Below, piece after piece: positions 1 to 11,566 of a stretch of 64,000 nucleotides of DNA. Origin of the DNA: a virus (taxonomy: Duplodnaviria > Caudoviricetes). The DNA lies in the IMG/VR virus record IMGVR_UViG_3300035520_000529, positions 1 through 64,000 of that record; one strand, given 5' to 3'. The translations under genes were made by a program, and so were the position numbers. The notes under the pieces were generated by a model. The model was not told where the DNA came from. It saw nothing but the letters and a program-made list of their open reading frames with translations, and searched no databases. Each line of letters starts with the position of its first letter. The first letter of the stretch is position 1.

Positions 1-81
1 AACACATATCCAGTTAGGCTTTAACTCTAATATGAGAGTTCAACTCTACACATAGGATTGAATTTTGATATTAGAGTTAAA

Positions 82-114
82 GGAATGCACAGAACTCCTA
101 TAAGCTGTGCAGAA
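82..114 (+). promoter_or_regulatory. Conserved leader hairpin, copy 1
   Basis: GGAA-T-GCACAG-AACTCCTATAAG-CTGTGC-AGAA; stem ends 16 nt before ATG 127. Confidence 0.8.
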
Positions 115-126
115 TTGAGGTTATTT

Positions 127-669
127 ATGCATTACATATCTATTACTGACAAAGCAAAAATGCTACGTTCTGAAATCAAAAGCAAACTAGGACTCAACTG
201 CCGTGAGGTTAGTGTCACTACTAGTGGCGGTGGTTATGATTCCAGTATCCACGTGTATTTAAAGACCCTTAAAGCTATGACTCACTATCAAGAGGTTGAA
301 AAGTTAGCTTCTAAACTTGAACATATCGACTATGACCCTTACTGTGGTGAGGTTCTATGTGGTGGCAATACCTACGTAAATGTGGGTTGTGACCGCTCTG
401 TGCTAAGAGAATTTAGCACTAAATATCTTGAACTTGCTACTAAAGTTTACAACGAACTTACTGAGGAAACTGGTGGCAAATGTGTTCTAACTATCAATGG
501 TGTTGACTTTCATTACATTCCTAAAAGCATTTCTCATTGTTACATTAATGGTATGTGCTTTATAGACACTAATGAACGCTCTCACAAGATTAGAAGAATT
601 GCTAATTCTGTAGAAGATATAGCATTTTCTATGGGTCAGTTTGAGCTTTGCGGATATTTCTTCTGCTAA
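127..669 (+). CDS. Hypothetical early phage protein (possibly LPD-type polyvalent-associated domain)
   Basis: ORF 58..669; start moved to ATG 127 behind GAGG RBS and leader hairpin copy 1. Confidence 0.6.
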   Translation: MHYISITDKAKMLRSEIKSKLGLNCREVSVTTSGGGYDSSIHVYLKTLKAMTHYQEVEKLASKLEHIDYDPYCGEVLCGGNTYVNVGCDRSVLREFSTKYLELATKVYNELTEETGGKCVLTINGVDFHYIPKSISHCYINGMCFIDTNERSHKIRRIANSVEDIAFSMGQFELCGYFFC

Positions 670-695
670 GATTTTGATTTGTAAATTTGATTTTT

Positions 696-722
696 AACTT
701 GTACCCAACTCGGGTACAAGTT
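696..722. repeat. 27-bp palindrome, candidate parS copy 1
   Basis: AACTTGTACCC-AACTC-GGGTACAAGTT; related copies at 33930, 38473, 45619. Confidence 0.7.
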
Positions 723-730
723 CTTTAACT

Positions 731-1123
731 ATGAAAGGATTTGATTGTATGAAAAAGATTACTAAAAAAGAATTTATCGCTAAAATGGTAGCAAATGAGA
801 CCTACTTTGTGAATGTTCATAAGTATATTAACAAGCCTATTCAATCTAAACTTGAGTTTATCAACAACGAAATAGTTGAACACAAGCCTGACCTTAGCGT
901 TATGAAAACACGTACTTGTGTACAACGCTCTGCTTTTCTAGAGTTTTCCATGGGTAGTAGACTCTACTTTAATCAACAAGCAGATTACTCTTACTATGAG
1001 TTTGAAATCGATTCTCAAGAGTACCTAATCATGGTAGAAACTACTGACAATTCTAAAATTAGCACTAACTCTTGGGATGACGCTATAAGCTACTTTATGG
1101 TTTACGCTGTGAAAGGAGAATAG
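731..1123 (+). CDS. Hypothetical protein
   Basis: ORF; likely start ATG 749 after GAAAGGA. Confidence 0.65.
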   Translation: MKGFDCMKKITKKEFIAKMVANETYFVNVHKYINKPIQSKLEFINNEIVEHKPDLSVMKTRTCVQRSAFLEFSMGSRLYFNQQADYSYYEFEIDSQEYLIMVETTDNSKISTNSWDDAISYFMVYAVKGE

Positions 1124-1125
1124 TC

Positions 1126-1356
1126 ATGAGAAGATACAACATTGCACCATGCAACATTAACAAGGAGTTAGAAACCAAAACTGACTATCTAGTTTGGTTG
1201 CTATCTCAAACTATTAACACTATAAATAGCCTACCCATTGACGGCAGAGAACGTGGAGACTTAGTCTCCATGTACATGGCTAACCTACTAAATGGTATTT
1301 CCGATGACGATATACCTCGTCAAATCTATGACCAAACTATTGGACGTAGCATATAA
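1126..1356 (+). CDS. Hypothetical protein
   Basis: ORF with AAAGGAG RBS, coupled to upstream stop. Confidence 0.6.
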   Translation: MRRYNIAPCNINKELETKTDYLVWLLSQTINTINSLPIDGRERGDLVSMYMANLLNGISDDDIPRQIYDQTIGRSI

Positions 1357-1372
1357 GAAAGGAGTTTTTATT

Positions 1373-1954
1373 ATGACTAATACTAATGTTATCACTTTAA
1401 ACGCTATGGTGGACTATCTAAAGTCCACCTTAACTGAACCTACTCAGCAAGAGTTCACATCCGCTGATACATCCGTAAACAGAAACCGCCTACCTAAAGT
1501 ATTTTCTGCTATCAAGAGTTGGAAAGCAGATTCCATAAATCTTGACCTCGGTGGTGGTAAGTTTGACAACGCTACTGAGTACCTATACTCTCAATACGGC
1601 TGTACAAACCTCATATTTGATAGGTTTAACCGCTCTGTTGATTGGAATACTCAAATACTAAATTACGTCACACAAGTGGGTGGTGCTGACACCCTAACTT
1701 GTGCTAACGTTCTTAACGTCATTGCTGAAAGTGAAATCCGTTTGGAGGTTATCGCTCAAGCTTACGCTCTACTAAAAAGTGACGGCATTGCGTACTTTCA
1801 AATCTATGAGGGTAACGGCTCTGGAGTAGGTTCTCAAACTAAGATTGATTGTTGGCAAAACAACTTAAAGGCTAATGAGTATATATCCGAATTGGAAACG
1901 TATTTCAATATCGAAAAAGTCTCCAATAAGATTATCGTTTGCACTAAGAAATAG
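1373..1954 (+). CDS. Class I SAM-dependent methyltransferase, probably DNA-directed
   Basis: NLDLGGGKFD SAM motif, CANVLNVI, YFQIYEG; RBS GAAAGGAG before ATG 1373. Confidence 0.65.
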   Translation: MTNTNVITLNAMVDYLKSTLTEPTQQEFTSADTSVNRNRLPKVFSAIKSWKADSINLDLGGGKFDNATEYLYSQYGCTNLIFDRFNRSVDWNTQILNYVTQVGGADTLTCANVLNVIAESEIRLEVIAQAYALLKSDGIAYFQIYEGNGSGVGSQTKIDCWQNNLKANEYISELETYFNIEKVSNKIIVCTKK

Positions 1955-1968
1955 TTGGAGATGTAATT

Positions 1969-2553
1969 ATGAACATTAAAGAAGAAATTAAAAAATACAA
2001 TGAGGGTCTTACTCATACCATAGACATTGACGATATTCACACTATATTCAATTCTATTTTAGAAATATTCAAGGAATATCTTCCTATGCCCGAAAACATA
2101 TATCTTAGTGATAAACCACTAAATTCCGCTACTAGACTTGGTCAATGCAAAAAAGAAGTTTGGACTATGCCTAATGGTAAAGTGGTAAATTGTGTGTACA
2201 CCATATACGTTAATAAGTGTTATATTGGCGCTCCAATTACTAAAGAGGTATTTTTTGATTTGGTAAACGTTATTGGTCACGAACTACTACACACCATTGT
2301 GCAATCTCATGATGCTAACTTTACAAAGTTAGCTAATATGCTAAATCAGTATCTAGGTTTTAAAATTGAAGCACACTATACACCATCCGAAACTACAAAA
2401 CTCCTAAATACAGTTAAGCCTAAATACGAAATTAGGTGTTCAAAGTGCAATCAACTTTTGGGTTGGAAATATCACAAATGCAAAATGATTAGCCACAGTC
2501 AAGATTATACTTCTCAATGCTGTTACGCTGATATTAAAATTATAAACCTATAA
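1969..2553 (+). CDS. SprT-like zinc metallopeptidase
   Basis: LGQC, HELLH, HD..F and C-terminal YxxxCxxC zinc ribbon. Confidence 0.75.
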   Translation: MNIKEEIKKYNEGLTHTIDIDDIHTIFNSILEIFKEYLPMPENIYLSDKPLNSATRLGQCKKEVWTMPNGKVVNCVYTIYVNKCYIGAPITKEVFFDLVNVIGHELLHTIVQSHDANFTKLANMLNQYLGFKIEAHYTPSETTKLLNTVKPKYEIRCSKCNQLLGWKYHKCKMISHSQDYTSQCCYADIKIINL

Positions 2554-2564
2554 ATTAAATTCAA

Positions 2565-2597
2565 GGAACGTGGAGAACTCCTATAAACTCCACAGAA
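2565..2597 (+). promoter_or_regulatory. Conserved leader hairpin, copy 2
   Basis: GGAA-C-GTGGAG-AACTCCTATAAA-CTCCAC-AGAA; 17 nt before ATG 2611. Confidence 0.8.
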
Positions 2598-2610
2598 AGT
2601 GAGTATTACT

Positions 2611-2913
2611 ATGAAAATTACAGGTATTAAAAAGGCAGTAAGCGACTATAAAAGAGCAAATGCTGGTGGTTATTATAGCCCTAGTTATGGTAGAATGATG
2701 TTAAACCGCTCTACTGGAGAAGTATGGACAGATGAATTCTACTGTGTAGGTCATACTGATTGGAACAAATATGATGACCCTGCAATCATCAACATAGTTA
2801 CAGCTATGAATAATATAGCTTGTGATGCAGTTACAGTAACTATGCAATCAATAAAAAAAATTGCTGTAAAACTTTGTGAAGAATACGCTAAGAATAAAAC
2901 TAAAAATTCTTAG
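2611..2913 (+). CDS. Hypothetical protein
   Basis: ORF 2599..2913; ATG 2611 preferred. Confidence 0.65.
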   Translation: MKITGIKKAVSDYKRANAGGYYSPSYGRMMLNRSTGEVWTDEFYCVGHTDWNKYDDPAIINIVTAMNNIACDAVTVTMQSIKKIAVKLCEEYAKNKTKNS

Positions 2914-2928
2914 GATATTCAATAATCA

Positions 2929-2996
2929 ACTCGTTGGAGCGAGTATAAAAAGTCCGTTAGGCTCTAAGCGTTCCGCCCAATTGGGCGGAGGTCGGA
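2929..2996 (+). ncRNA. Pistol self-cleaving ribozyme A
   Basis: P1 ACUCG/CGAGU with loop UUGGAG; linker AUAAAAAG; P2 UCCG/CGGA; UUAGG; pseudoknot strand CUCUAA; GCGU; P3 UCCGCCC/GGGCGGA; GGU (predicted cut G2991/U2992). Confidence 0.9.
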
Positions 2997-3004
2997 AAAT
3001 TAAA

Positions 3005-3037
3005 GGAAAGCACAGAACTCCTTTAAACTGTGCAGAA
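3005..3037 (+). promoter_or_regulatory. Conserved leader hairpin, copy 3
   Basis: GGAA-A-GCACAG-AACTCCTTTAAA-CTGTGC-AGAA; 17 nt before ATG 3051. Confidence 0.8.
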
Positions 3038-3050
3038 AGTGAGTATCGTT

Positions 3051-3497
3051 ATGAATAAGGAAACTAAAGTTATCAATGCTATCAAGGTTTGCACTGATGG
3101 TAATATGTACCCAGTGAAGTTTAAGGAAAATTCCCTCGCTGATATGTACTCTTTGCTAAACTGTTCTAACATTGAGATTGTACACGCTATGCGTTTGAAT
3201 GGCTCTTTCTGCTTAGTCTGTGATGGAGAAGCACTATTGAAAGATTCTCCTCAAATTAACCTTTATGCAAGTTATCTATATGGCTCTGAACAACATAGGA
3301 ACTACATTTATGGAGATGTGCTAATCTGTAAAGAATACAACTTCGATGAGGATTTCGAGGACGATGAAGATGAATCCGACTTCCAATCTATGACACAAGA
3401 TGAGATTGATTACTATTTTCTACAGAAACTTTTCCTAGTTGGTAAGTTAAAAAGTTTTGCTGATGATACTGAACGTTGGCTAAAAGGACTCTTATAA
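3051..3497 (+). CDS. DUF3846-like protein
   Basis: L..MY.LLNC..IE.V, CDGE.LLK...IN..AS.LY, IYGDVLI pattern. Confidence 0.6.
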   Translation: MNKETKVINAIKVCTDGNMYPVKFKENSLADMYSLLNCSNIEIVHAMRLNGSFCLVCDGEALLKDSPQINLYASYLYGSEQHRNYIYGDVLICKEYNFDEDFEDDEDESDFQSMTQDEIDYYFLQKLFLVGKLKSFADDTERWLKGLL

Positions 3498-3511
3498 TCG
3501 CTAGTTTTTAG

Positions 3512-3540
3512 TTGACAAAATAGTATAAATTTACTATAAT
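3512..3540 (+). promoter_or_regulatory. Sigma-A promoter
   Basis: TTGACA-17-TATAAT. Confidence 0.8.
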
Positions 3541-3565
3541 ATAGCTATCAAAGGAGAGGTTTTTT

Positions 3566-4027
3566 ATGAAAAAAGTTGGATATTGTAAGTACGTTCACAA
3601 GTCAAACTTAGCTGAACTTTTAAATTCAGTTTCGGATTTAGAAAGAGAACCCATTAAAGAGCTGATTAGTCAGCATAGCACATACTGGAATTTTGAGGTG
3701 GTTAAGTACGATTCTAAGACTAAAAATCTCTCCTTAATTCAGTCTCTAAATTGGAATACTGCTAATGAGCCAACTGTTGGTGACAGTTTAATAATCAACA
3801 TAGTTACGTTGAAAATCTCTATTTCAAAAATGAAAACCCGTGAACAGATTTACCATCAAAAAGAACTTTTCGTGTCCGAAAACTACAGTGGTTTTGACGT
3901 TCAAAAGGCTAAGGCTAGGACTCAACTTTGGAAGTCAAAAATACAAAATCTTAGCCAACACAAAACTAGAATGGGTTATCGTTGGTACTGGAATGAATTG
4001 CTAGATATGTATAATATTGAGAAATAG
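3566..4027 (+). CDS. Protein resembling the accessory domain of phosphorothioation-associated methyltransferases (TIGR04096-like)
   Basis: YVHKS, VVKYD, EP.VGDS, IYHQKELFV..Y, RMG...W pattern; recognised from memory. Confidence 0.5.
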   Translation: MKKVGYCKYVHKSNLAELLNSVSDLEREPIKELISQHSTYWNFEVVKYDSKTKNLSLIQSLNWNTANEPTVGDSLIINIVTLKISISKMKTREQIYHQKELFVSENYSGFDVQKAKARTQLWKSKIQNLSQHKTRMGYRWYWNELLDMYNIEK

Positions 4028-4041
4028 TTTCCATTTTGCAC

Positions 4042-4070
4042 TTGATTTTTGTGCAAATTTATGGTACAAT
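4042..4070 (+). promoter_or_regulatory. Sigma-A promoter with TTTGCAC/GTGCAAA inverted repeat around the -35
   Basis: TTGATT-17-TACAAT, extended -10 TG. Confidence 0.6.
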
Positions 4071-4091
4071 ATTCTTAAATTTAACAGTTTT

Positions 4092-4124
4092 GGAACGTGG
4101 AGAACTCCTATAAACTCCACAGAA
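4092..4124 (+). promoter_or_regulatory. Conserved leader hairpin, copy 4
   Basis: GGAA-C-GTGGAG-AACTCCTATAAA-CTCCAC-AGAA; 17 nt before ATG 4138. Confidence 0.8.
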
Positions 4125-4137
4125 AAGGAGAATTGCC

Positions 4138-4455
4138 ATGAAAGAATTATTCGTTGTTGATGTGGATAACGGCGGTAGTATGTGGATTCCAGACGGCTCG
4201 GACATCTACGGAGACCTTATAGAAAACTATATCGAAGCTGAAAATGAGGATGCTGTCTTTAAGTACCTCGTGGACTACTTCATTAAGGGCAGTTCTGAGG
4301 TCGACTGGGGAGAAGATGGTATGCCCGATTATAAGGTCGACTACGCTAAAAAACGCATAGATTGGTGCGAAGATGAGTATCAATACCACTACATTTTTGA
4401 GATTGAACCCGTCTTTGAAGCAGACGAAAATATCCCTATAACTACCATCGACTAG
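4138..4455 (+). CDS. Small acidic hypothetical protein
   Basis: AAGGAG RBS; very D/E-rich (DNA-mimic-like composition). Confidence 0.7.
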   Translation: MKELFVVDVDNGGSMWIPDGSDIYGDLIENYIEAENEDAVFKYLVDYFIKGSSEVDWGEDGMPDYKVDYAKKRIDWCEDEYQYHYIFEIEPVFEADENIPITTID

Positions 4456-4519
4456 GCGATGTAAAATAGTCCATTAAGCCTAGTGCGTTACTCCATCCGC
4501 AGGGGTGGAGTAGGTTGGA
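4446..4519 (+). ncRNA. Pistol self-cleaving ribozyme B
   Basis: P1 CAUCG/CGAUG with loop ACUAGG; UAAAAUAG; P2 UCCA/UGGA; UUAAG; pseudoknot strand CCUAGU; GCGU; P3 UACUCCAUCC/GGGUGGAGUA; GGU (predicted cut G4514/U4515). Confidence 0.9.
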
Positions 4520-4566
4520 AAGCATATTTTTAACTCTATTTTACAAATTTTAAGGAGGTCTTTTTT

Positions 4567-6450
4567 ATGAAATTGAAAGACAAATTGAAGACTTTTTGGA
4601 TGAAAGCAATTCTCATATTTTGTTATATCCAAGGAGGCATTATAGTCATAATAGGTGGGTTGTTAACGGCAATCCTCCCTCTTGCACTGAATTTGGCAGG
4701 GTTTCCACTGGCTATTCACTGGATGGCAGACAACGTTTTTATTGGTGGAATTAAGGCTATTTTATATGTAGTTTTCATTGGAGTGGGTTCTGTTAAGTTC
4801 TTTTTAAACTTTGGTGAATCTGGAACTCCACCTTTTTGGAAGTATGTTGTTGGTGGCATTTGCAGTATATACGATAAACCCGTCAACAAATTGGAATATG
4901 AACTTCAAGTGCATAAAATTAGAGAAAAGAATAAACTCGATTATGACAAAGACTATGTAAATCCAAATAAAAAATTATCATTACTTGACAAAATAAAAAT
5001 ACATAAAAATAAAGAGATTTTTAACAGAGTATATGATAACTTTTTCCTAAGTTATGACAGCTATTTTCACATTCAGTGGGATAGGTTTGGCGACTCTAAC
5101 TCATGGTACAGATGTATGAATTACAAAGATTACAGACTTTCTTTGATTAAAAATCCATACGTTTCAGCAACCAAAAAATACAAAGAAAATAAGAAGTTGC
5201 TATTTATGGGTAAGTGTTATGGACTCGTTTCATCGCCACAAAACCCTTACAAGGATAACAAAGTTCATTCACAATACGATTTTGTTTTCTATGACCTTTA
5301 TCAAGAAAGTAAGCGTAAGCCAAACGTCTTCGCACAAAGCATTGAAAATAATGTTGATGGTGTACTATACGAGATTTTGGCAATGTTGCAAATAATATCT
5401 TGTAAAGATTTTGACGAGTATTTTTACTACAATTTACATTTTCCAATTACAAAAGATAATGTATTTGAACAAGCCGTTAATCAACAAATGGAAAATTTGC
5501 TCTTTTGGATGTATATTGACCAAGCAATGACTGTGGATTTTATTGACATTCATACGCTCCATATTGAAGATAGGTTCATTTTAATGATTAATCAGCTACA
5601 CAAAATGCACTTACTTTTCACTAACAATAACTTCATATCTTCTCAAAACTCGTTCGATTGCGACTTCCTTTATAACGAATTAGAAATTGGCGAGTACGAG
5701 CAATCCCTAATTGCTCTCGTTGAAAAAGTGCCTAAGATTGAGGAAAGCATAAAGAACCTACCTCACAAAGATAACGTCCCTTTGATGTTAGAAAAGTCGC
5801 AAATATGCTCTGATGTGTGGCTTGAATGGTATCAAAGCAAACGAAAAGACGAACTCTCCGAAAATAGTTTGTACCATGAAATTGCCGAAAGGTTCACATC
5901 TTCAATCTTTGACAAAAGTACATTTCTCACTGCCATCGTTGTAGAAGATACGAAAACTAAAAAAAGACAATTATATTTTGTTGGCGAAAAGATTCTTTTT
6001 ATGTTGGATTCAGATGAAAATAATAATGTTTTATATGATGAAATTCATTATACTATGGATACTTATCTTTATGAGCAAACCTCACACGAACGAGATTTGA
6101 ACACTATAAACGATGACCAAAAATTGAGAGAGTTTATTTTTAAGAAAGAAGTTCCAAAGCATATCTATAGCGACTTTAAAAGGGTTTGTACTTTTTTCAA
6201 CCCAAAGTATGTAAAGTTTATACATAACTTGGATAATCTAAACTATATGATTTCTAACGAGTATAAAGCAATTTGCCGTTATGAATTTCAAATGAGTTAT
6301 TCACGTTTCTTAGAAGATACGCAAAAAGAATTTAAGGAAACCATTGAAAGGTTTAGAGAAAAGTGTTTGAAAATGTATGCTAATTATGAAGAAATATATT
6401 TAGAAATTTACAATGAGGATAAAAACCAAAATGTAAACTCTGTAAATTAA
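4567..6450 (+). CDS. Hypothetical membrane-anchored protein
   Basis: AAGGAGG RBS; 2-3 hydrophobic N-terminal helices followed by a large soluble domain. Confidence 0.7.
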   Translation: MKLKDKLKTFWMKAILIFCYIQGGIIVIIGGLLTAILPLALNLAGFPLAIHWMADNVFIGGIKAILYVVFIGVGSVKFFLNFGESGTPPFWKYVVGGICSIYDKPVNKLEYELQVHKIREKNKLDYDKDYVNPNKKLSLLDKIKIHKNKEIFNRVYDNFFLSYDSYFHIQWDRFGDSNSWYRCMNYKDYRLSLIKNPYVSATKKYKENKKLLFMGKCYGLVSSPQNPYKDNKVHSQYDFVFYDLYQESKRKPNVFAQSIENNVDGVLYEILAMLQIISCKDFDEYFYYNLHFPITKDNVFEQAVNQQMENLLFWMYIDQAMTVDFIDIHTLHIEDRFILMINQLHKMHLLFTNNNFISSQNSFDCDFLYNELEIGEYEQSLIALVEKVPKIEESIKNLPHKDNVPLMLEKSQICSDVWLEWYQSKRKDELSENSLYHEIAERFTSSIFDKSTFLTAIVVEDTKTKKRQLYFVGEKILFMLDSDENNNVLYDEIHYTMDTYLYEQTSHERDLNTINDDQKLREFIFKKEVPKHIYSDFKRVCTFFNPKYVKFIHNLDNLNYMISNEYKAICRYEFQMSYSRFLEDTQKEFKETIERFREKCLKMYANYEEIYLEIYNEDKNQNVNSVN

Positions 6451-6464
6451 TAGGAGGTATTATC

Positions 6465-7337
6465 ATGAAAGAAATTAAAATGACTGTTATGGGAAACGTT
6501 GCTCTTGAGGAAACTTTTGAAAAGACACAAGAGCCTACTATCGAACCACAAAGCACAAATGTACGTCAGTTGAAGAGCAACTATATACATCGTAAATCCG
6601 ATGGTGCAGAGTACATCAAGCCTACAGCAGGTGACCCTATTAGGTCTAAGGCGGACTTAAAAGCCATCTACAAGTACTTTGAAGATGGCAGAAGTTCACA
6701 GATAGAAACTCTTAATGCACGTAATTACGCAATCTTTATCCTAGGAATATCCACTGGATTGAGAATCTCCGACTTGCTAAAAATTAAAGTCAGAGACATA
6801 ATCGACCTTAGAAAGCTTAACGCAGTTTTGAAGTCCAAACCTAAATCAAAAATCACTAAAGAGGACGATATTTTCGTGGATAGAATTTACATCTGCGAAC
6901 AGAAGACAGGTAAAATTAACAAACCAGTAATGTCAAAAAGGTGTAAAGTTTTGATATTTGACTATTTAAAGTTGGTAAAAAAAGAAGTAAAGCTTAGCTT
7001 TACTGACTACCTCTGGGTGGCTGGTGGAAATCGCACGAGCGTTAAGGTTGTGAGTAAGCCAATCGCCATGCAGAACTACTACGATGTGCTCAAAAAAATC
7101 TCAAACGAGATTGAGTTTGAAACTCCAACCCACCTATCTACGCACAGTATGAGGAAAACCTTTGGTTATTGGCTCTTCAAAAACGCATCTTCTCAAGCCG
7201 AAACTTTGGCGATTTTGCAAGAGTTGTTCAACCACAGCAACCAAAGGGTGACCCTAAGGTACATCGGTATCACTGAGGACACCAAGCTCAAAACCCTTGC
7301 TGAGTTCAGTAATCTGCTCGATGACATTTTAGAATAG
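6465..7337 (+). CDS. Tyrosine recombinase (integrase/resolvase)
   Basis: TGLRISD, EQKTGK, HSMRKT, FNHS, TLRYIG: complete R-K-H-R-H-Y set. Confidence 0.92.
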   Translation: MKEIKMTVMGNVALEETFEKTQEPTIEPQSTNVRQLKSNYIHRKSDGAEYIKPTAGDPIRSKADLKAIYKYFEDGRSSQIETLNARNYAIFILGISTGLRISDLLKIKVRDIIDLRKLNAVLKSKPKSKITKEDDIFVDRIYICEQKTGKINKPVMSKRCKVLIFDYLKLVKKEVKLSFTDYLWVAGGNRTSVKVVSKPIAMQNYYDVLKKISNEIEFETPTHLSTHSMRKTFGYWLFKNASSQAETLAILQELFNHSNQRVTLRYIGITEDTKLKTLAEFSNLLDDILE

Positions 7338-7415
7338 CTAACACGCTCGTATTCAAACGGAAATGGGTCAAAATCAAGCGTTAGTGGTTTACCCTTGAAA
7401 TCATACCCCTAAATT

Positions 7416-7451
7416 TAGAACCCTCATTTTGAGCAGATTTGGAGGGTTCTA
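7416..7451 (+). terminator. Hairpin downstream of the recombinase
   Basis: TAGAACCCTC/GAGGGTTCTA 10-bp stem, T-rich downstream. Confidence 0.45.
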
Positions 7452-7931
7452 GAGCATTTTGCTTTTTCAACAAGTATTTCCAACTAATGACAGCCCGCAA
7501 ACCACGATTCTAGCTCTATACCATTATAATATATATTTACTATCTTGAAAATTAATAAAAAACTAAAATATTAATTAAACATTAAGTATTACAAATTAGT
7601 GTATATATTAGTAAAATAATAAATATATTTTTGCAACTCTTTAATTTTCGCTCGAAAGCTTCGCATTCGAGCGATGCTGTCACACTAATCACACTAATTC
7701 AACCAATTACGTACTATCAATCACCAATTTTCGTTCCTAGCGAAGTAACTAATCATATCATCCATTCAAGCAATCGTTAAATCAATTCCCCATTTCATGA
7801 GGAAGTCTAGGTTTAAACGTGAGTTTTGGATGGGTAAACCACCAAAATTTCTACTCTCAAATTGGTTTCTCAATAAACCATAATTGGAATTAATATCTAA
7901 AATATTGTCAAGATGCTCTAACTCTAATCTC

Positions 7932-8052: not shown

Positions 8053-9945
8053 ATGAGTGATGTAATCGTTAATTTTGGTTCACATATAGTTCCATGTTCT
8101 AAGCTTGATGAAAACTTCTATTTGGGTAACATAAAGCTTAGAGATATTATCAAGTTAAAGACGTGTTTTCGTGATTTTAACAAGTATCCAATAAAAAAGA
8201 CTGAGGTTAAAACTCACTGTGAAAAGATACTTGAATGTGTAAAAAAAGGTACATTAAGACCTAATACTTTAAGCTTTCAAGCTTCCGAATTTTACTTCCA
8301 AGCTGAGAACGTTCTGCTCGTAAACAAGCTTGAGGTTGACTATCAAAAGTTGGTGCTTTTAAAAGTGTCTGAAGAGTGTGAATCCACACAAATATGTGTT
8401 CCCTTTGTATTAGAGTTGTATGATAAATCCAAAGCCTATGAGAGTATCGACAGTATCATAAATAGCAAAGATTTACAATTATTGAATGAAAAGACAACCA
8501 TGTTCAATGCCCTATTATCGAAGTCATACCTACTTACCGAATTTTACACTATGCTAAAAAACAGGTATGATTACAACATCGAAAACCAAGTAGTGGAAAT
8601 ATTGACATACTACCTCTCCCAGACAGATTTAACGAGAGAAACCCTTTATAACTACATAGATACGTTATTAGACAGTGAAACTTTCAAAGAGTATTTTTCA
8701 AATTGCAATCACTTAAACAATCCATCTATTACAAATTTGGAAAGTCTCACAAATAACGTAATTCTGTTTGTTTTTAAGTTTGTAGCTGTTAGCAAAGAAA
8801 ATTCAAAAAGCAACTTGGAGTTCATAACATCGCAGTTTATGGATGAAATCTTTAAAGAGGTTGACTATCCGAAGTCTAAAGTTGAAATTGCAAACATTGT
8901 GAAAGATATTTGCAATAACGAATCAGCGATTTTGAAAAGTTTAACAAATAAGAATCTCTATAACTCACACCAAAAAATCGAATTTATAGAAGACTCTTAT
9001 AGGCAAAATCCCGATAAGTTTTACAACTGCGTAATTGACCAAACTAAGTCCTTTGAGGAGATTTCTCGTCATGAAAAGAAACTCCAAAAGGATTTACTAG
9101 AGTTTTCTATTGAGGAGATTGTGGAACTCTTAAAGAACTTTAACTCTAGCATTACGATGGTTGCAAAGTACAAAACACTGATAAGAAAGTATTTTGAATG
9201 GGGTAAAAATCATAGGCTAATCGAACCCTCCAAGGTTATGGAACTTAATAATTTGAAAAAAGAAAAGTTTGTAAACTCACAAAATAGAAACGTTTGTAAG
9301 TTTTTCTTAACCGAAAATGACTACGCTTCAGCAATGGAGAGGATGTATCACCACTCGAACAACCTAAAAGTTAAGCAGTTTATAATTTCATTTTTCTTTA
9401 ATTCTGTTGGAATCTCTCAAGAGAACATCCGCACAGTTACGTTGTTTAACTATAAGGACATTCTAGAAAAAGGTCTCGCTTTGGAAATTAGAGGAGAAGT
9501 TTTTGAAATGAAAACCATTTTAAACTCTGCTTTGAGAATATGTGAATACTTTATTGAACATGACCGCAATGAGGACTATCGCATTAAGGATACCGACTTT
9601 TTGATATGTTCTCACGGAGTGAACAACAGCACAAAAAACACGCATTTTCCAAGCGTTTTGGTCGATTTAAACCAAAGCCACGTGATTCCTTACACAATCT
9701 CACCTAAAACGATAACTCCTAGTAACCTTGAACAATGTGTCAAATTCATCGCATTTGAGCAGTATCTAATCAAAAATAATTTGGATGTTCATTCCACAAA
9801 CAGTGATATTAGGCGAGAAATCTCTTTGACCTACAAAGAATTTTTTAATGTGAAAGAGTCCGTTTCAAACGCTTTAGTGTTCTCTGGGTACGTTAATGCG
9901 AGGTTTGTAAACGAGTTTCTCGATTTTAAAAATAGTGTTGATTAA
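8053..9945 (+). CDS. Putative lysogeny regulator: N-terminal YopQ/DndB-like domain fused to a YopR/MrpR-like degenerate recombinase fold
   Basis: N-term FYLG.I...DI...G.L.PNTLS; from aa ~302 LYN..QK.EF...E....KDL.EFS.EEI..LL..FN.S...Y...I.KYF.W; no catalytic RHRY. Confidence 0.5.
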   Translation: MSDVIVNFGSHIVPCSKLDENFYLGNIKLRDIIKLKTCFRDFNKYPIKKTEVKTHCEKILECVKKGTLRPNTLSFQASEFYFQAENVLLVNKLEVDYQKLVLLKVSEECESTQICVPFVLELYDKSKAYESIDSIINSKDLQLLNEKTTMFNALLSKSYLLTEFYTMLKNRYDYNIENQVVEILTYYLSQTDLTRETLYNYIDTLLDSETFKEYFSNCNHLNNPSITNLESLTNNVILFVFKFVAVSKENSKSNLEFITSQFMDEIFKEVDYPKSKVEIANIVKDICNNESAILKSLTNKNLYNSHQKIEFIEDSYRQNPDKFYNCVIDQTKSFEEISRHEKKLQKDLLEFSIEEIVELLKNFNSSITMVAKYKTLIRKYFEWGKNHRLIEPSKVMELNNLKKEKFVNSQNRNVCKFFLTENDYASAMERMYHHSNNLKVKQFIISFFFNSVGISQENIRTVTLFNYKDILEKGLALEIRGEVFEMKTILNSALRICEYFIEHDRNEDYRIKDTDFLICSHGVNNSTKNTHFPSVLVDLNQSHVIPYTISPKTITPSNLEQCVKFIAFEQYLIKNNLDVHSTNSDIRREISLTYKEFFNVKESVSNALVFSGYVNARFVNEFLDFKNSVD

Positions 9946-9991
9946 CCCCATCAAATATAGTATAATTATATTAAAACAAGGAGGAATGATT

Positions 9992-11566
9992 ATGGGAATA
10001 TATTTGAATCCAAACAATTCGGACTTTAAAGAGAGTCTAAACAGTGAAATCTACGTAGATAAGTCTATGCTTATCAGCAAAGTAAACAATATCATTGATA
10101 CTAAACAAAAATACGTTTGCATTAGCAGACCTAGACGTTTTGGAAAATCCATGACGTTAGAAATGCTCAACGCTTATTATAGCTCTGGTTGTGACTCTAA
10201 AGAACTATTCCAAGATTTGAAAATCTCTCAAGATGGTAGCTTTGAAAAACATTTAAATAAGTTTAACACCATTATGTTGAATGTTCAAGAATTTTATAGT
10301 GATAACAATAATTCCATCGATGAAATGATAGAAGATATTACAGAAACCCTAAAAACTGAAATGCTTAAACAGTATCCAAATCTTGACTACATTAGCAAAG
10401 ATAGGTTGGTTAGGGTAATGAATACTATATATACAGAAACTGGCACATCGTTTATCTTTCTCATTGACGAATGGGACTGTATTTTTAGAGTCAGCAAGAA
10501 TGACAGCAAGTCCCAAGAGAAGTATCTTGACTTCCTTAGAAACCTCTTAAAGGATAAAAAGTACGTATCTTTGGCTTATATGACTGGTATACTTCCCATC
10601 AAAAAGTATGGTGTACACTCAGCTTTGAATATGTTTACTGAGGTATCTATGACTGATGTTAGAGAGTTTGCGGAATACACTGGCTTTACTGAAGATGAAG
10701 TTAAGGAACTTTGTAATCGCTACAGTATGAGTTTTGAAGACACTAAAAAGTGGTATAATGGTTATAATTTGGAGGGTGTTGCTATATATAATCCTCGTTC
10801 GGTAGTTATGTCAATGACTGGCAGAAAGTTCAATAGCTATTGGACTCAAACAGAAACCTACGAAGCTCTAAAGGTCTATATATCCATGAACTTTGAGGGT
10901 TTGCGTGACGTAATCGTTCAGCTTATAGCAGGTGGAACTTACAAAATTGATACTGGAACGTTCTCCAACGATATGACTACCTTTAACCGCTTAGATGACG
11001 TACTTACGTTGTTAGTGCATTTGGGATACCTATCCTATAACTTTGATACCCAAGAAGTTAGGATTCCTAACTACGAAATCTCTAAGGAGTTTGTGAACGT
11101 AATCGAAATTTCAAAATGGAATGAGACTATCAAGGCTATTAAGCAATCCATGGATTTGCTAGAAGATACGTGGCTTTTGAAAGAGAATAAAGTCGCAAAG
11201 GCTATTGAAGACGTGCACCAAGAGAACACTTCCATAATTAAGTATAATAACGAAAACTCACTATCCTGCGTGGTTTCGTTGGCATACTACAGTGCTAAGG
11301 AATACTACAGTGTAATCCGAGAGCTTCCAACGGGTAAGGGTTTCGCTGACATCGTTATGATACCTCACAAGAACCACCTCGACAAACCTGCTATGGTGAT
11401 TGAATTAAAGTTTGACAAGAACGTAGATACGGCAATCAAGCAGATTTTGAGGAAAGAGTACACGCAATCACTTAAAAACTATAAAGGTGACATCTTGTTG
11501 GTTGGTATTAACTACAATAAAATCACTAAAGCACACACTTGCAAGATTATCAAGGTTACTAAGTAG
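9992..11566 (+). CDS. AAA-ATPase-like + PD-(D/E)XK nuclease protein (DUF1703/PDDEXK_9 type)
   Basis: RPRRFGKS, IDEWD, RELPTGKGFADI...IELK; own promoter TTGATT-17-TATAAT at 9938-9966. Confidence 0.88.
   Translation: MGIYLNPNNSDFKESLNSEIYVDKSMLISKVNNIIDTKQKYVCISRPRRFGKSMTLEMLNAYYSSGCDSKELFQDLKISQDGSFEKHLNKFNTIMLNVQEFYSDNNNSIDEMIEDITETLKTEMLKQYPNLDYISKDRLVRVMNTIYTETGTSFIFLIDEWDCIFRVSKNDSKSQEKYLDFLRNLLKDKKYVSLAYMTGILPIKKYGVHSALNMFTEVSMTDVREFAEYTGFTEDEVKELCNRYSMSFEDTKKWYNGYNLEGVAIYNPRSVVMSMTGRKFNSYWTQTETYEALKVYISMNFEGLRDVIVQLIAGGTYKIDTGTFSNDMTTFNRLDDVLTLLVHLGYLSYNFDTQEVRIPNYEISKEFVNVIEISKWNETIKAIKQSMDLLEDTWLLKENKVAKAIEDVHQENTSIIKYNNENSLSCVVSLAYYSAKEYYSVIRELPTGKGFADIVMIPHKNHLDKPAMVIELKFDKNVDTAIKQILRKEYTQSLKNYKGDILLVGINYNKITKAHTCKIIKVTK

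Follow-up and report, generated by a model that had tools for sequence, protein, structure and literature searches.

What would a self-cleaving ribozyme do between two co-directional genes of a phage, where any message for the second gene might have to pass through it? The question is raised by a 68-nt element, here called pistol A, near the left end of the window, by which we mean the whole stretch of DNA analysed (bases 1–64000 of a 108,209-bp IMG/VR virus record with a CheckV completeness of 64%). Pistol ribozymes were described in 2015, with hundreds in the original alignments, and occur mainly in Firmicutes, their phages and environmental DNA (PMC4604425), a habitat that pistol A fits, coming as it does from an IMG/VR virus record whose nearest phages are of Bacillota type. 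We argue below that pistol A is an intact member of this class and that it probably acts in constitutive processing of the message between two cistrons.

Pistol A is a full-length, canonical pistol ribozyme

A search of the whole window with Infernal cmscan and Rfam 15 matched RF02679 (Pistol) on the + strand at 2929–2996 with 72.7 bits, more than twice the gathering score of 34.5, over model positions 1–68 of 68 (E = 2.5e-11, calculated for 64 kb, both strands and 4,227 families). A sequence-only reading of this DNA had proposed a pistol ribozyme there, matching the pistol consensus, and had named the Rfam model as a check; the match begins and ends at exactly the nucleotides that it gave. 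Only one other Rfam match in the window exceeded its gathering score, and it too was to Pistol (4446–4519; pistol B). A permissive Rfam scan of the window, with E up to 1, returned no further ribozymes and no degenerate or permuted pistols, no third copy was found in the whole 108-kb record, and the exact core TTARGC-N5-GCGT occurs in the window at the two pistols only. Degenerate pistols in the window were rejected as candidates because the core pattern with one mismatch occurs there at chance level.

All of the structural elements that had been read from the letters were found in their places and in order, both in the sequence and in the alignment to the model (Table 1), and the six pairs of the proposed pseudoknot between UUGGAG and CUCUAA are present, one of them G–U. 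Unconstrained minimum free energy (MFE) folding of the 68 nt with ViennaRNA recovered the three stems P1, P2 and P3 in canonical order. In the core, purine-32 and G33 correspond to 2960 and 2961, and G40, C41, G42 and U43 to 2968–2971; together with the AAA of the linker, all of these match the model consensus and are invariant in four aligned pistols. In env25 numbering, G40, G33 (with its N7-bound Mg2+), G42 and A32 have catalytic or active-site roles (PMC10946891). Pistol A has G at position 32, as do 56 of 108 IMG/VR cores among the matches listed, the other 52 having A.

In element order and core, pistol A is the same as canonical pistols (RF02679; the L. sphaericus and A. putredinis constructs, PMC4604425; env25, PMC10946891), and it shares with them the 6-bp P1-loop pseudoknot and the placement of the scissile bond in a 2-nt GU junction. 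We found no structural difference from them; pistol A has the one G–U pseudoknot pair and one linker nucleotide more than the Rfam consensus, a variant present in 47 of the 108 cores among the matches listed. Cleavage by pistols falls inside a strictly 2-nt GU junction leading from P3 to P2 and yields one product with a 2′,3′-cyclic phosphate end and one with a 5′-OH end (PMC4604425). The cut that the sequence-only reading had predicted, between G2991 and U2992, agrees with this rule. It had also placed a triplet, GGU, before P2′; the cut site is the same, but in the Rfam structure the first G closes P3 with U2971, and the junction proper is GU. We conclude that 2929–2996 is a genuine canonical pistol ribozyme, its cleavage being predicted from the sequence, and that it is an ordinary copy of a known and common ribozyme class.

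Table 1 Pistol A, its parts and neighbouring features, in window coordinates.
Feature	Position	Strand	Description and basis
Pistol ribozyme A, whole element	2929..2996	+	RF02679, full-length
P1 hairpin	2929..2944	+	5 bp, ACUCG 2929-2933 with CGAGU 2940-2944; sequence and MFE fold
P1 loop, pseudoknot 5′ strand UUGGAG	2934-2939	+	6 nt; sequence
A-rich linker AUAAAAAG	2945..2952	+	conserved AAA within; cmscan alignment to consensus
P2	2953-2956 with 2993-2996	+	4 bp, UCCG with CGGA; cmscan, MFE fold
Catalytic core	2957..2971	+	UUAGG 2957-2961, CUCUAA 2962-2967, GCGU 2968-2971; model alignment
Pseudoknot 3′ strand CUCUAA	2962-2967	+	6 pairs with UUGGAG, one G-U
P3 hairpin	2971-2978 with 2983-2990	+	8 pairs, outer one U-G; loop AAUU
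Predicted scissile bond	G2991/U2992	+	2-nt GU junction between P3 (ends 2990) and P2′ (2993-2996)
Pistol ribozyme B	4446..4519	+	RF02679, 60.9 bits, all 68 model positions; predicted cut G4514/U4515
Leader hairpin, copies 1-4	82-114, 2565-2597, 3005-3037, 4092-4124	+	sequence pattern
Leader copy 3	3005..3037	+	stem 3010-3015 with 3028-3033; starts 13 nt after predicted pistol A cut
Candidate flank helix (weak evidence)	2906..2921 with 3040-3056	+	MFE fold of 2890-3056 (167 nt)
Upstream co-directional ORF	2611..2913	+	100 aa, no family; leader copy 2 sets ATG at 2611; UAG stop 2911-2913
Downstream gene, DUF3846 protein	3051..3497	+	148 aa; Pfam PF12957, E 4.6e-12
Perfect sigma-70 consensus promoter TTGACA-17-TATAAT	3512-3540	+	5′ of ORF 3566-4027; between the two pistols
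TG-extended -10 promoter-like site	4042-4070	+	5′ of leader 4; between the two pistols

Compensatory changes in pistol B and in IMG/VR pistols

Pistol B has the same orientation as pistol A and lies 1.5 kb from it. Its P1 (CAUCG/CGAUG), its pseudoknot (ACUAGG/CCUAGU) and its P3 differ from those of pistol A with every pair kept, and this independent support from compensating changes, along with the E-value, argues that pistol A is more than a chance match. To these two copies we added an IMG/VR search with a degenerate pattern that fixes conserved core letters only, which gave at least 119 loci; pairing was analysed in 108 distinct cores among the matches listed. Pseudoknot pairs 2–5, which the pattern leaves unconstrained, were paired in 106–108 of these 108 listed cores, with 3–6 pair types each, and P1 pairs 2–5 were paired in all 108, pairs 3–5 being fixed by the search pattern. 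Pistol A fits the family covariation pattern at every position. A rare P2 sequence, UCC, is common to pistols A and B and occurs in 4 of the 108 cores among the matches listed, which hints that the two may be paralogues.

The downstream gene has to be transcribed through the ribozyme

All ORFs in the first 11.5 kb lie on the + strand, which is that of the ribozyme. The UAG of the upstream ORF is 15 nt 5′ of P1, and the ATG of the downstream DUF3846 gene, confirmed as the start by homologues at 89, 85 and 56% identity, lies 54 nt beyond the ribozyme 3′ end and 59 nt beyond the predicted cut. A consensus scan of 1–7500 found no promoter-like or terminator-like site on the + strand between 2914 and 3050, so transcription of the DUF3846 gene must in every case run through the ribozyme. 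A further open frame, ORF 2876–3058, overlaps the end of ORF 2611–2913 and the start of the DUF3846 gene. The sequence-only reading had called it spurious, plausibly so: it has no Pfam hit and no Shine–Dalgarno (SD) sequence, and since it spans the ribozyme, overlaps both neighbours and lacks a family hit, it is best read as spurious. We rejected it as a coding frame, the stretch being accounted for by the ribozyme and a leader hairpin.

The same reading had described the genes around the ribozyme as early, a label drawn from position and gene content, which are consistent with an early or accessory arm. Directly right of this small-gene region lies a tyrosine integrase (6465–7337, +), followed by a 630-aa protein with an MrpR-type core-binding domain (8053–9945, +) and an AAA-ATPase_like plus PDDEXK_9 nuclease-family protein (9935–11566, +). 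A second recombinase-like gene and replication genes (DnaB-like, RecJ-like and RecD2-like) also lie to the right of the pistols. By the RecD2-like protein, the nearest cultured phages infect Enterocloster, Brevibacillus, Thomasclavelia and Staphylococcus (26–33% identity), and the host is probably a Bacillota, as judged from these nearest phage relatives. Searches with two proteins, that of the DUF3846 gene and the 627-aa one encoded 3′ of pistol B, across viral, metagenome and genome contigs found no loci related to that of pistol A, INPHARED held no near-identical phage records, and no RtcB was found in the phage record.

The record is rich in mobile RNA elements. It has three RAGATH-18 RNAs of 61.8–78.4 bits (C1 71489–71559, 91642–91712 and 99833–99907 (−); as locus coordinates, L127:7489–7559, L128:7642–7712 and L128:15833–15907), RAGATH-18 being the guide-RNA scaffold of IS607 TnpB nucleases (PMC11061315). 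A tRNA (L128:11155–11225) and a group I intron (L127:6291–6670) are also present.

A repeated leader hairpin follows the predicted cut

Between pistol A and the DUF3846 gene lies one of four copies of a leader hairpin (Table 1) that follows the pattern GGAA-N, a 6-bp stem with a 12-nt loop AACUCCU(A/U)UAA(A/G), and AGAA, and is succeeded by an SD. The stem comes in two versions, GCACAG/CUGUGC or GUGGAG/CUCCAC, which differ by three compensatory pairs, and the distance from stem end to ATG is 17 nt in 4/4 copies. The 108-kb record has exactly four instances of the near-invariant loop motif, always on the + strand and within the first 4.2 kb. In copy 3, the one next to pistol A, the 8 nt before the stem (UUAAAGGA) are perfectly complementary to the loop, a match that is less good in the other copies; a pseudoknot between the loop and these 8 nt is possible, judging from this complementarity. 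Leader 4 follows a TG-extended −10, with the expected transcript start 13–15 nt before the leader; leader 2 has a weak promoter candidate only, and leader 1 no convincing promoter. The exact degenerate leader pattern found nothing in metagenome or genome contigs. Its lone viral-contig match was set aside as chance, having no stem and lying in a record that has no pistol.

MFE folding also predicted an interrupted helix of 15 pairs that encloses both pistol A and leader 3. The 5′ strand of this candidate helix is the end of ORF 2611–2913 plus spacer, and its 3′ strand (3040–3056) takes in the AUG of the DUF3846 gene and part of its SD. The duplex, which was noticed post hoc, has −12.1 kcal/mol, with z −2.7 and p ~0.01 against shuffles. 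That pistol flanks generally pair to mask the next ribosome-binding site was not supported: the mean z over 36 pistols was +0.12, and the value of −2.7 was seen in pistol A only.

Surveyed pistols lie close to the upstream stop codon

Gene layout was surveyed around 54 distinct complete IMG/VR pistols, among the matches listed, that have the GGU triplet before P2′, ORFs being taken simply as frames of at least 50 codons from their first start. The figures in this paragraph all refer to matches listed. A co-directional ORF stops within −25 to +30 nt of the pistol 5′ end in 43 of 52 cases; the median gap is ~5–5.5 nt to the upstream stop and ~42–45.5 nt to the next start downstream, and where both neighbours were present the upstream gap was the smaller in 35 cases versus 6 (n = 41; binomial p 5e-6). 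Coverage of the flanks by open frames of at least 80 codons is greater on the ribozyme strand than on the opposite one, in 29 loci versus 6 upstream and in 28 versus 7 downstream. Negative stop gaps cluster at −10, −20 and −24 and fall in the P1 loop and the conserved linker, the stops at −20 and −24 being the UAA and UAG of that linker. Co-oriented multiples recur, with three pistols in 1.7 kb of one contig (L107) and two each in two others (L053 and L054). A gene family shared beside the pistols was rejected: on each side, 37 of 41 neighbours drew no Pfam hit, and ArdA, ArdC-N, phi29 SSB and a few others were singletons. Re-pairing of P2′ in a 5′-terminal hairpin of the 3′ product was not supported, being found in 19 of 54 compared with 17.2 ± 3.3 in shuffles. 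Pistols thus abut the upstream stop codon and leave ~40 nt before the next start, a general and testable regularity, and pistol A, with 15 nt and 54 nt, fits this layout as an average member.

In pistol B the UAG stop of ORF 4138–4455 falls inside the P1 loop, and its offset of −10 matches that in Bacillus phage Vinny. On the 3′ side of pistol B come a plain, A/U-rich 52-nt UTR, which has a strong SD and lacks the leader hairpin, and a 627-aa ORF for which no Pfam or PHROG family was found. The pistols of Bacillus phages Vinny, CAM003, Evoli and Hoody T and of Microcystis phage MaeS are 84–89% identical in their 5′ half. Like pistol A, they lie between two genes of their own orientation and begin at the upstream stop or shortly after it; this stop lies 10 nt inside the ribozyme in Vinny and 20 nt before it in MaeS, where an antirestriction gene comes next. 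These phages have one pistol per genome, compared with two here, and none has the leader hairpin of pistol A.

Discussion

We consider it probable that pistol A is a functional element for constitutive intercistronic mRNA processing, and we infer that it is cleaved in vivo and affects expression. Pistol A would be transcribed within a polycistronic + strand RNA at the left end of the phage genome, would fold into P1, the P1-loop pseudoknot, P2 and P3, and would sever its own backbone by internal transesterification at the bond joining G2991 to U2992. The upstream message, carrying ORF 2611–2913, would keep 63 of the 68 ribozyme nucleotides in a 78-nt 3′ tail that ends in the folded ribozyme, giving it a compact 3′-terminal fold and a 2′,3′-cyclic phosphate. 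The downstream message would start at U2992 with a 5′-OH and a 59-nt 5′ UTR, and would consist, in order, of 5 nt of ribozyme, the leader hairpin beginning 13 nt after the cut, the SD and the DUF3846 gene. A characterised pistol cleaves at >10 per min under near-physiological conditions (PMC4604425); such a rate and the obligate read-through of the ribozyme imply that the mature DUF3846 message would begin at U2992. In this way the cut could uncouple the stability and translation of adjacent cistrons, with no need for a terminator and a promoter between them. The tight placement behind the upstream stop and the retention of nearly all of the fold by the 5′ product are consistent with protection of the upstream message at its 3′ end, and the 40–60 nt before the next start fit a clean 5′ UTR for the downstream one.

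Bacterial hammerhead and twister ribozymes have been proposed to act in intercistronic processing (PMC6765202). Polycistronic RNAs around ardA are cut by tandem hammerheads, with processing shown in part there and for HHphage (PMC3088659), and the triple hammerheads of A. tumefaciens resemble the present locus in that co-oriented ribozymes punctuate an operon of small genes of phage or anti-restriction type (PMC3088659). In haloviruses HF1/HF2, the HHphage hammerhead cleaves no more than 3 nt from a mapped early-transcript 5′ end (PMC3088659), a precedent for a ribozyme-made mRNA 5′ end. Hammerheads are a different class, and these cases have in vitro or in vivo cleavage data; for pistol A cleavage is predicted from the sequence. 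The glmS ribozyme of Bacillota also cleaves in cis, in a 5′ UTR, and leaves a 5′-OH on the coding fragment, as predicted for pistol A, but it needs GlcN6P and is a metabolite-sensing off-switch that works via RNase J1, whereas pistols are cofactor-free and pistol A is followed by a hairpin.

The comparison with glmS also supplies an argument in the other direction. In B. subtilis, RNase J1 degrades the glmS product that bears the ribozyme-made 5′-OH (PMC3328962), which makes attenuation a live rival to processing; by analogy, a 5′-OH that serves as an RNase J1 substrate might mean that the cut lowers, rather than preserves, downstream expression. Pistol A would then be an attenuator that destabilises the distal message by exposing the DUF3846 mRNA to this 5′-to-3′ exonuclease, in keeping with nearest phage relatives that infect Bacillota and with a phage record that encodes no RtcB. 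We consider such an attenuator unlikely, as we do its expected outcome, that promoter-distal genes are expressed less than the upstream gene, because a 6-bp hairpin and an SD within 18–50 nt of the new end could block the exonuclease and because a weak SD would be a cheaper way for a phage to lower expression. An alternative interpretation of the gene spacing is that pistol A is coupled to translation: ribosomes ending at UAG 2911–2913 would reach approximately the base of P1 and open the flank helix that masks the SD and AUG. The stop 15 nt before P1, the median of ~5 nt between stops and pistols among the matches listed, the stops that lie inside pistols (pistol B and Vinny) and the predicted flank duplex (−12.1 kcal/mol, z −2.7, p ~0.01) are all consistent with this. 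However, the flank helix is post hoc, A/U-rich and, with a mean z of +0.12 over 36 pistols, not general; tight spacing may reflect compact phage genomes, and a terminating ribosome at 15 nt may not touch P1. We regard a switch of this kind as quite unlikely, and hold the same of its consequence, that cleavage or DUF3846 translation depends on translation of the upstream ORF.

Two further explanations were weighed. Pistol A could be a selfish or neutral passenger: still intact, it would travel with small accessory genes and do nothing of consequence for the phage. Pistols abound in phage contigs (at least 119 IMG/VR loci), the literature gives them no settled biological role, and, among the matches listed, their flanking genes share no family, Pfam giving no hit for 37 of 41 on either side. 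We nevertheless think a passenger very unlikely, since both copies retain a fully intact core and differ by compensatory changes, and since placement relative to genes is strongly non-random among the matches listed (35 versus 6, p 5e-6). The pairing of two co-oriented pistols 1.5 kb apart, and of co-oriented multiples in other phage contigs among the matches listed (three in L107, two each in L053 and L054), might instead point to an excision cassette, in which pistols A and B would release a 1523-nt RNA from U2992 to G4514, bearing a 5′-OH and a 2′,3′-cyclic phosphate, that a host RtcB-type ligase could circularise. We take this to be highly improbable: a search of the phage record for RtcB found none, we saw no helix that would join the ends, and the interval contains promoter-like sites at 3512–3540 (perfect consensus) and 4042–4070, so that many transcripts would miss the 5′ cut end.

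The leader suggests a further and less probable function, which we put forward tentatively: the ribozyme may substitute for a promoter, self-cleavage giving an internal cistron a message that starts with the leader, can be translated and is buffered against exonucleases. Four genes of the leftmost region share a leader that is private to this phage, and leader 3 has no promoter of its own. There the 5′-OH end made by pistol A would fall exactly 13 nt before the leader, compared with the 13–15 nt that would separate the transcript start from leader 4, and the cut would also part the two strands of the flank helix that masks the SD and AUG. The link between ribozyme and leader is drawn from one convincing promoter-driven comparison, leader 4, and pistol B has no leader.

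In itself pistol A is a minor find that Rfam-based annotation would call, pistols being abundant in phage DNA. [quoted passage not shown]
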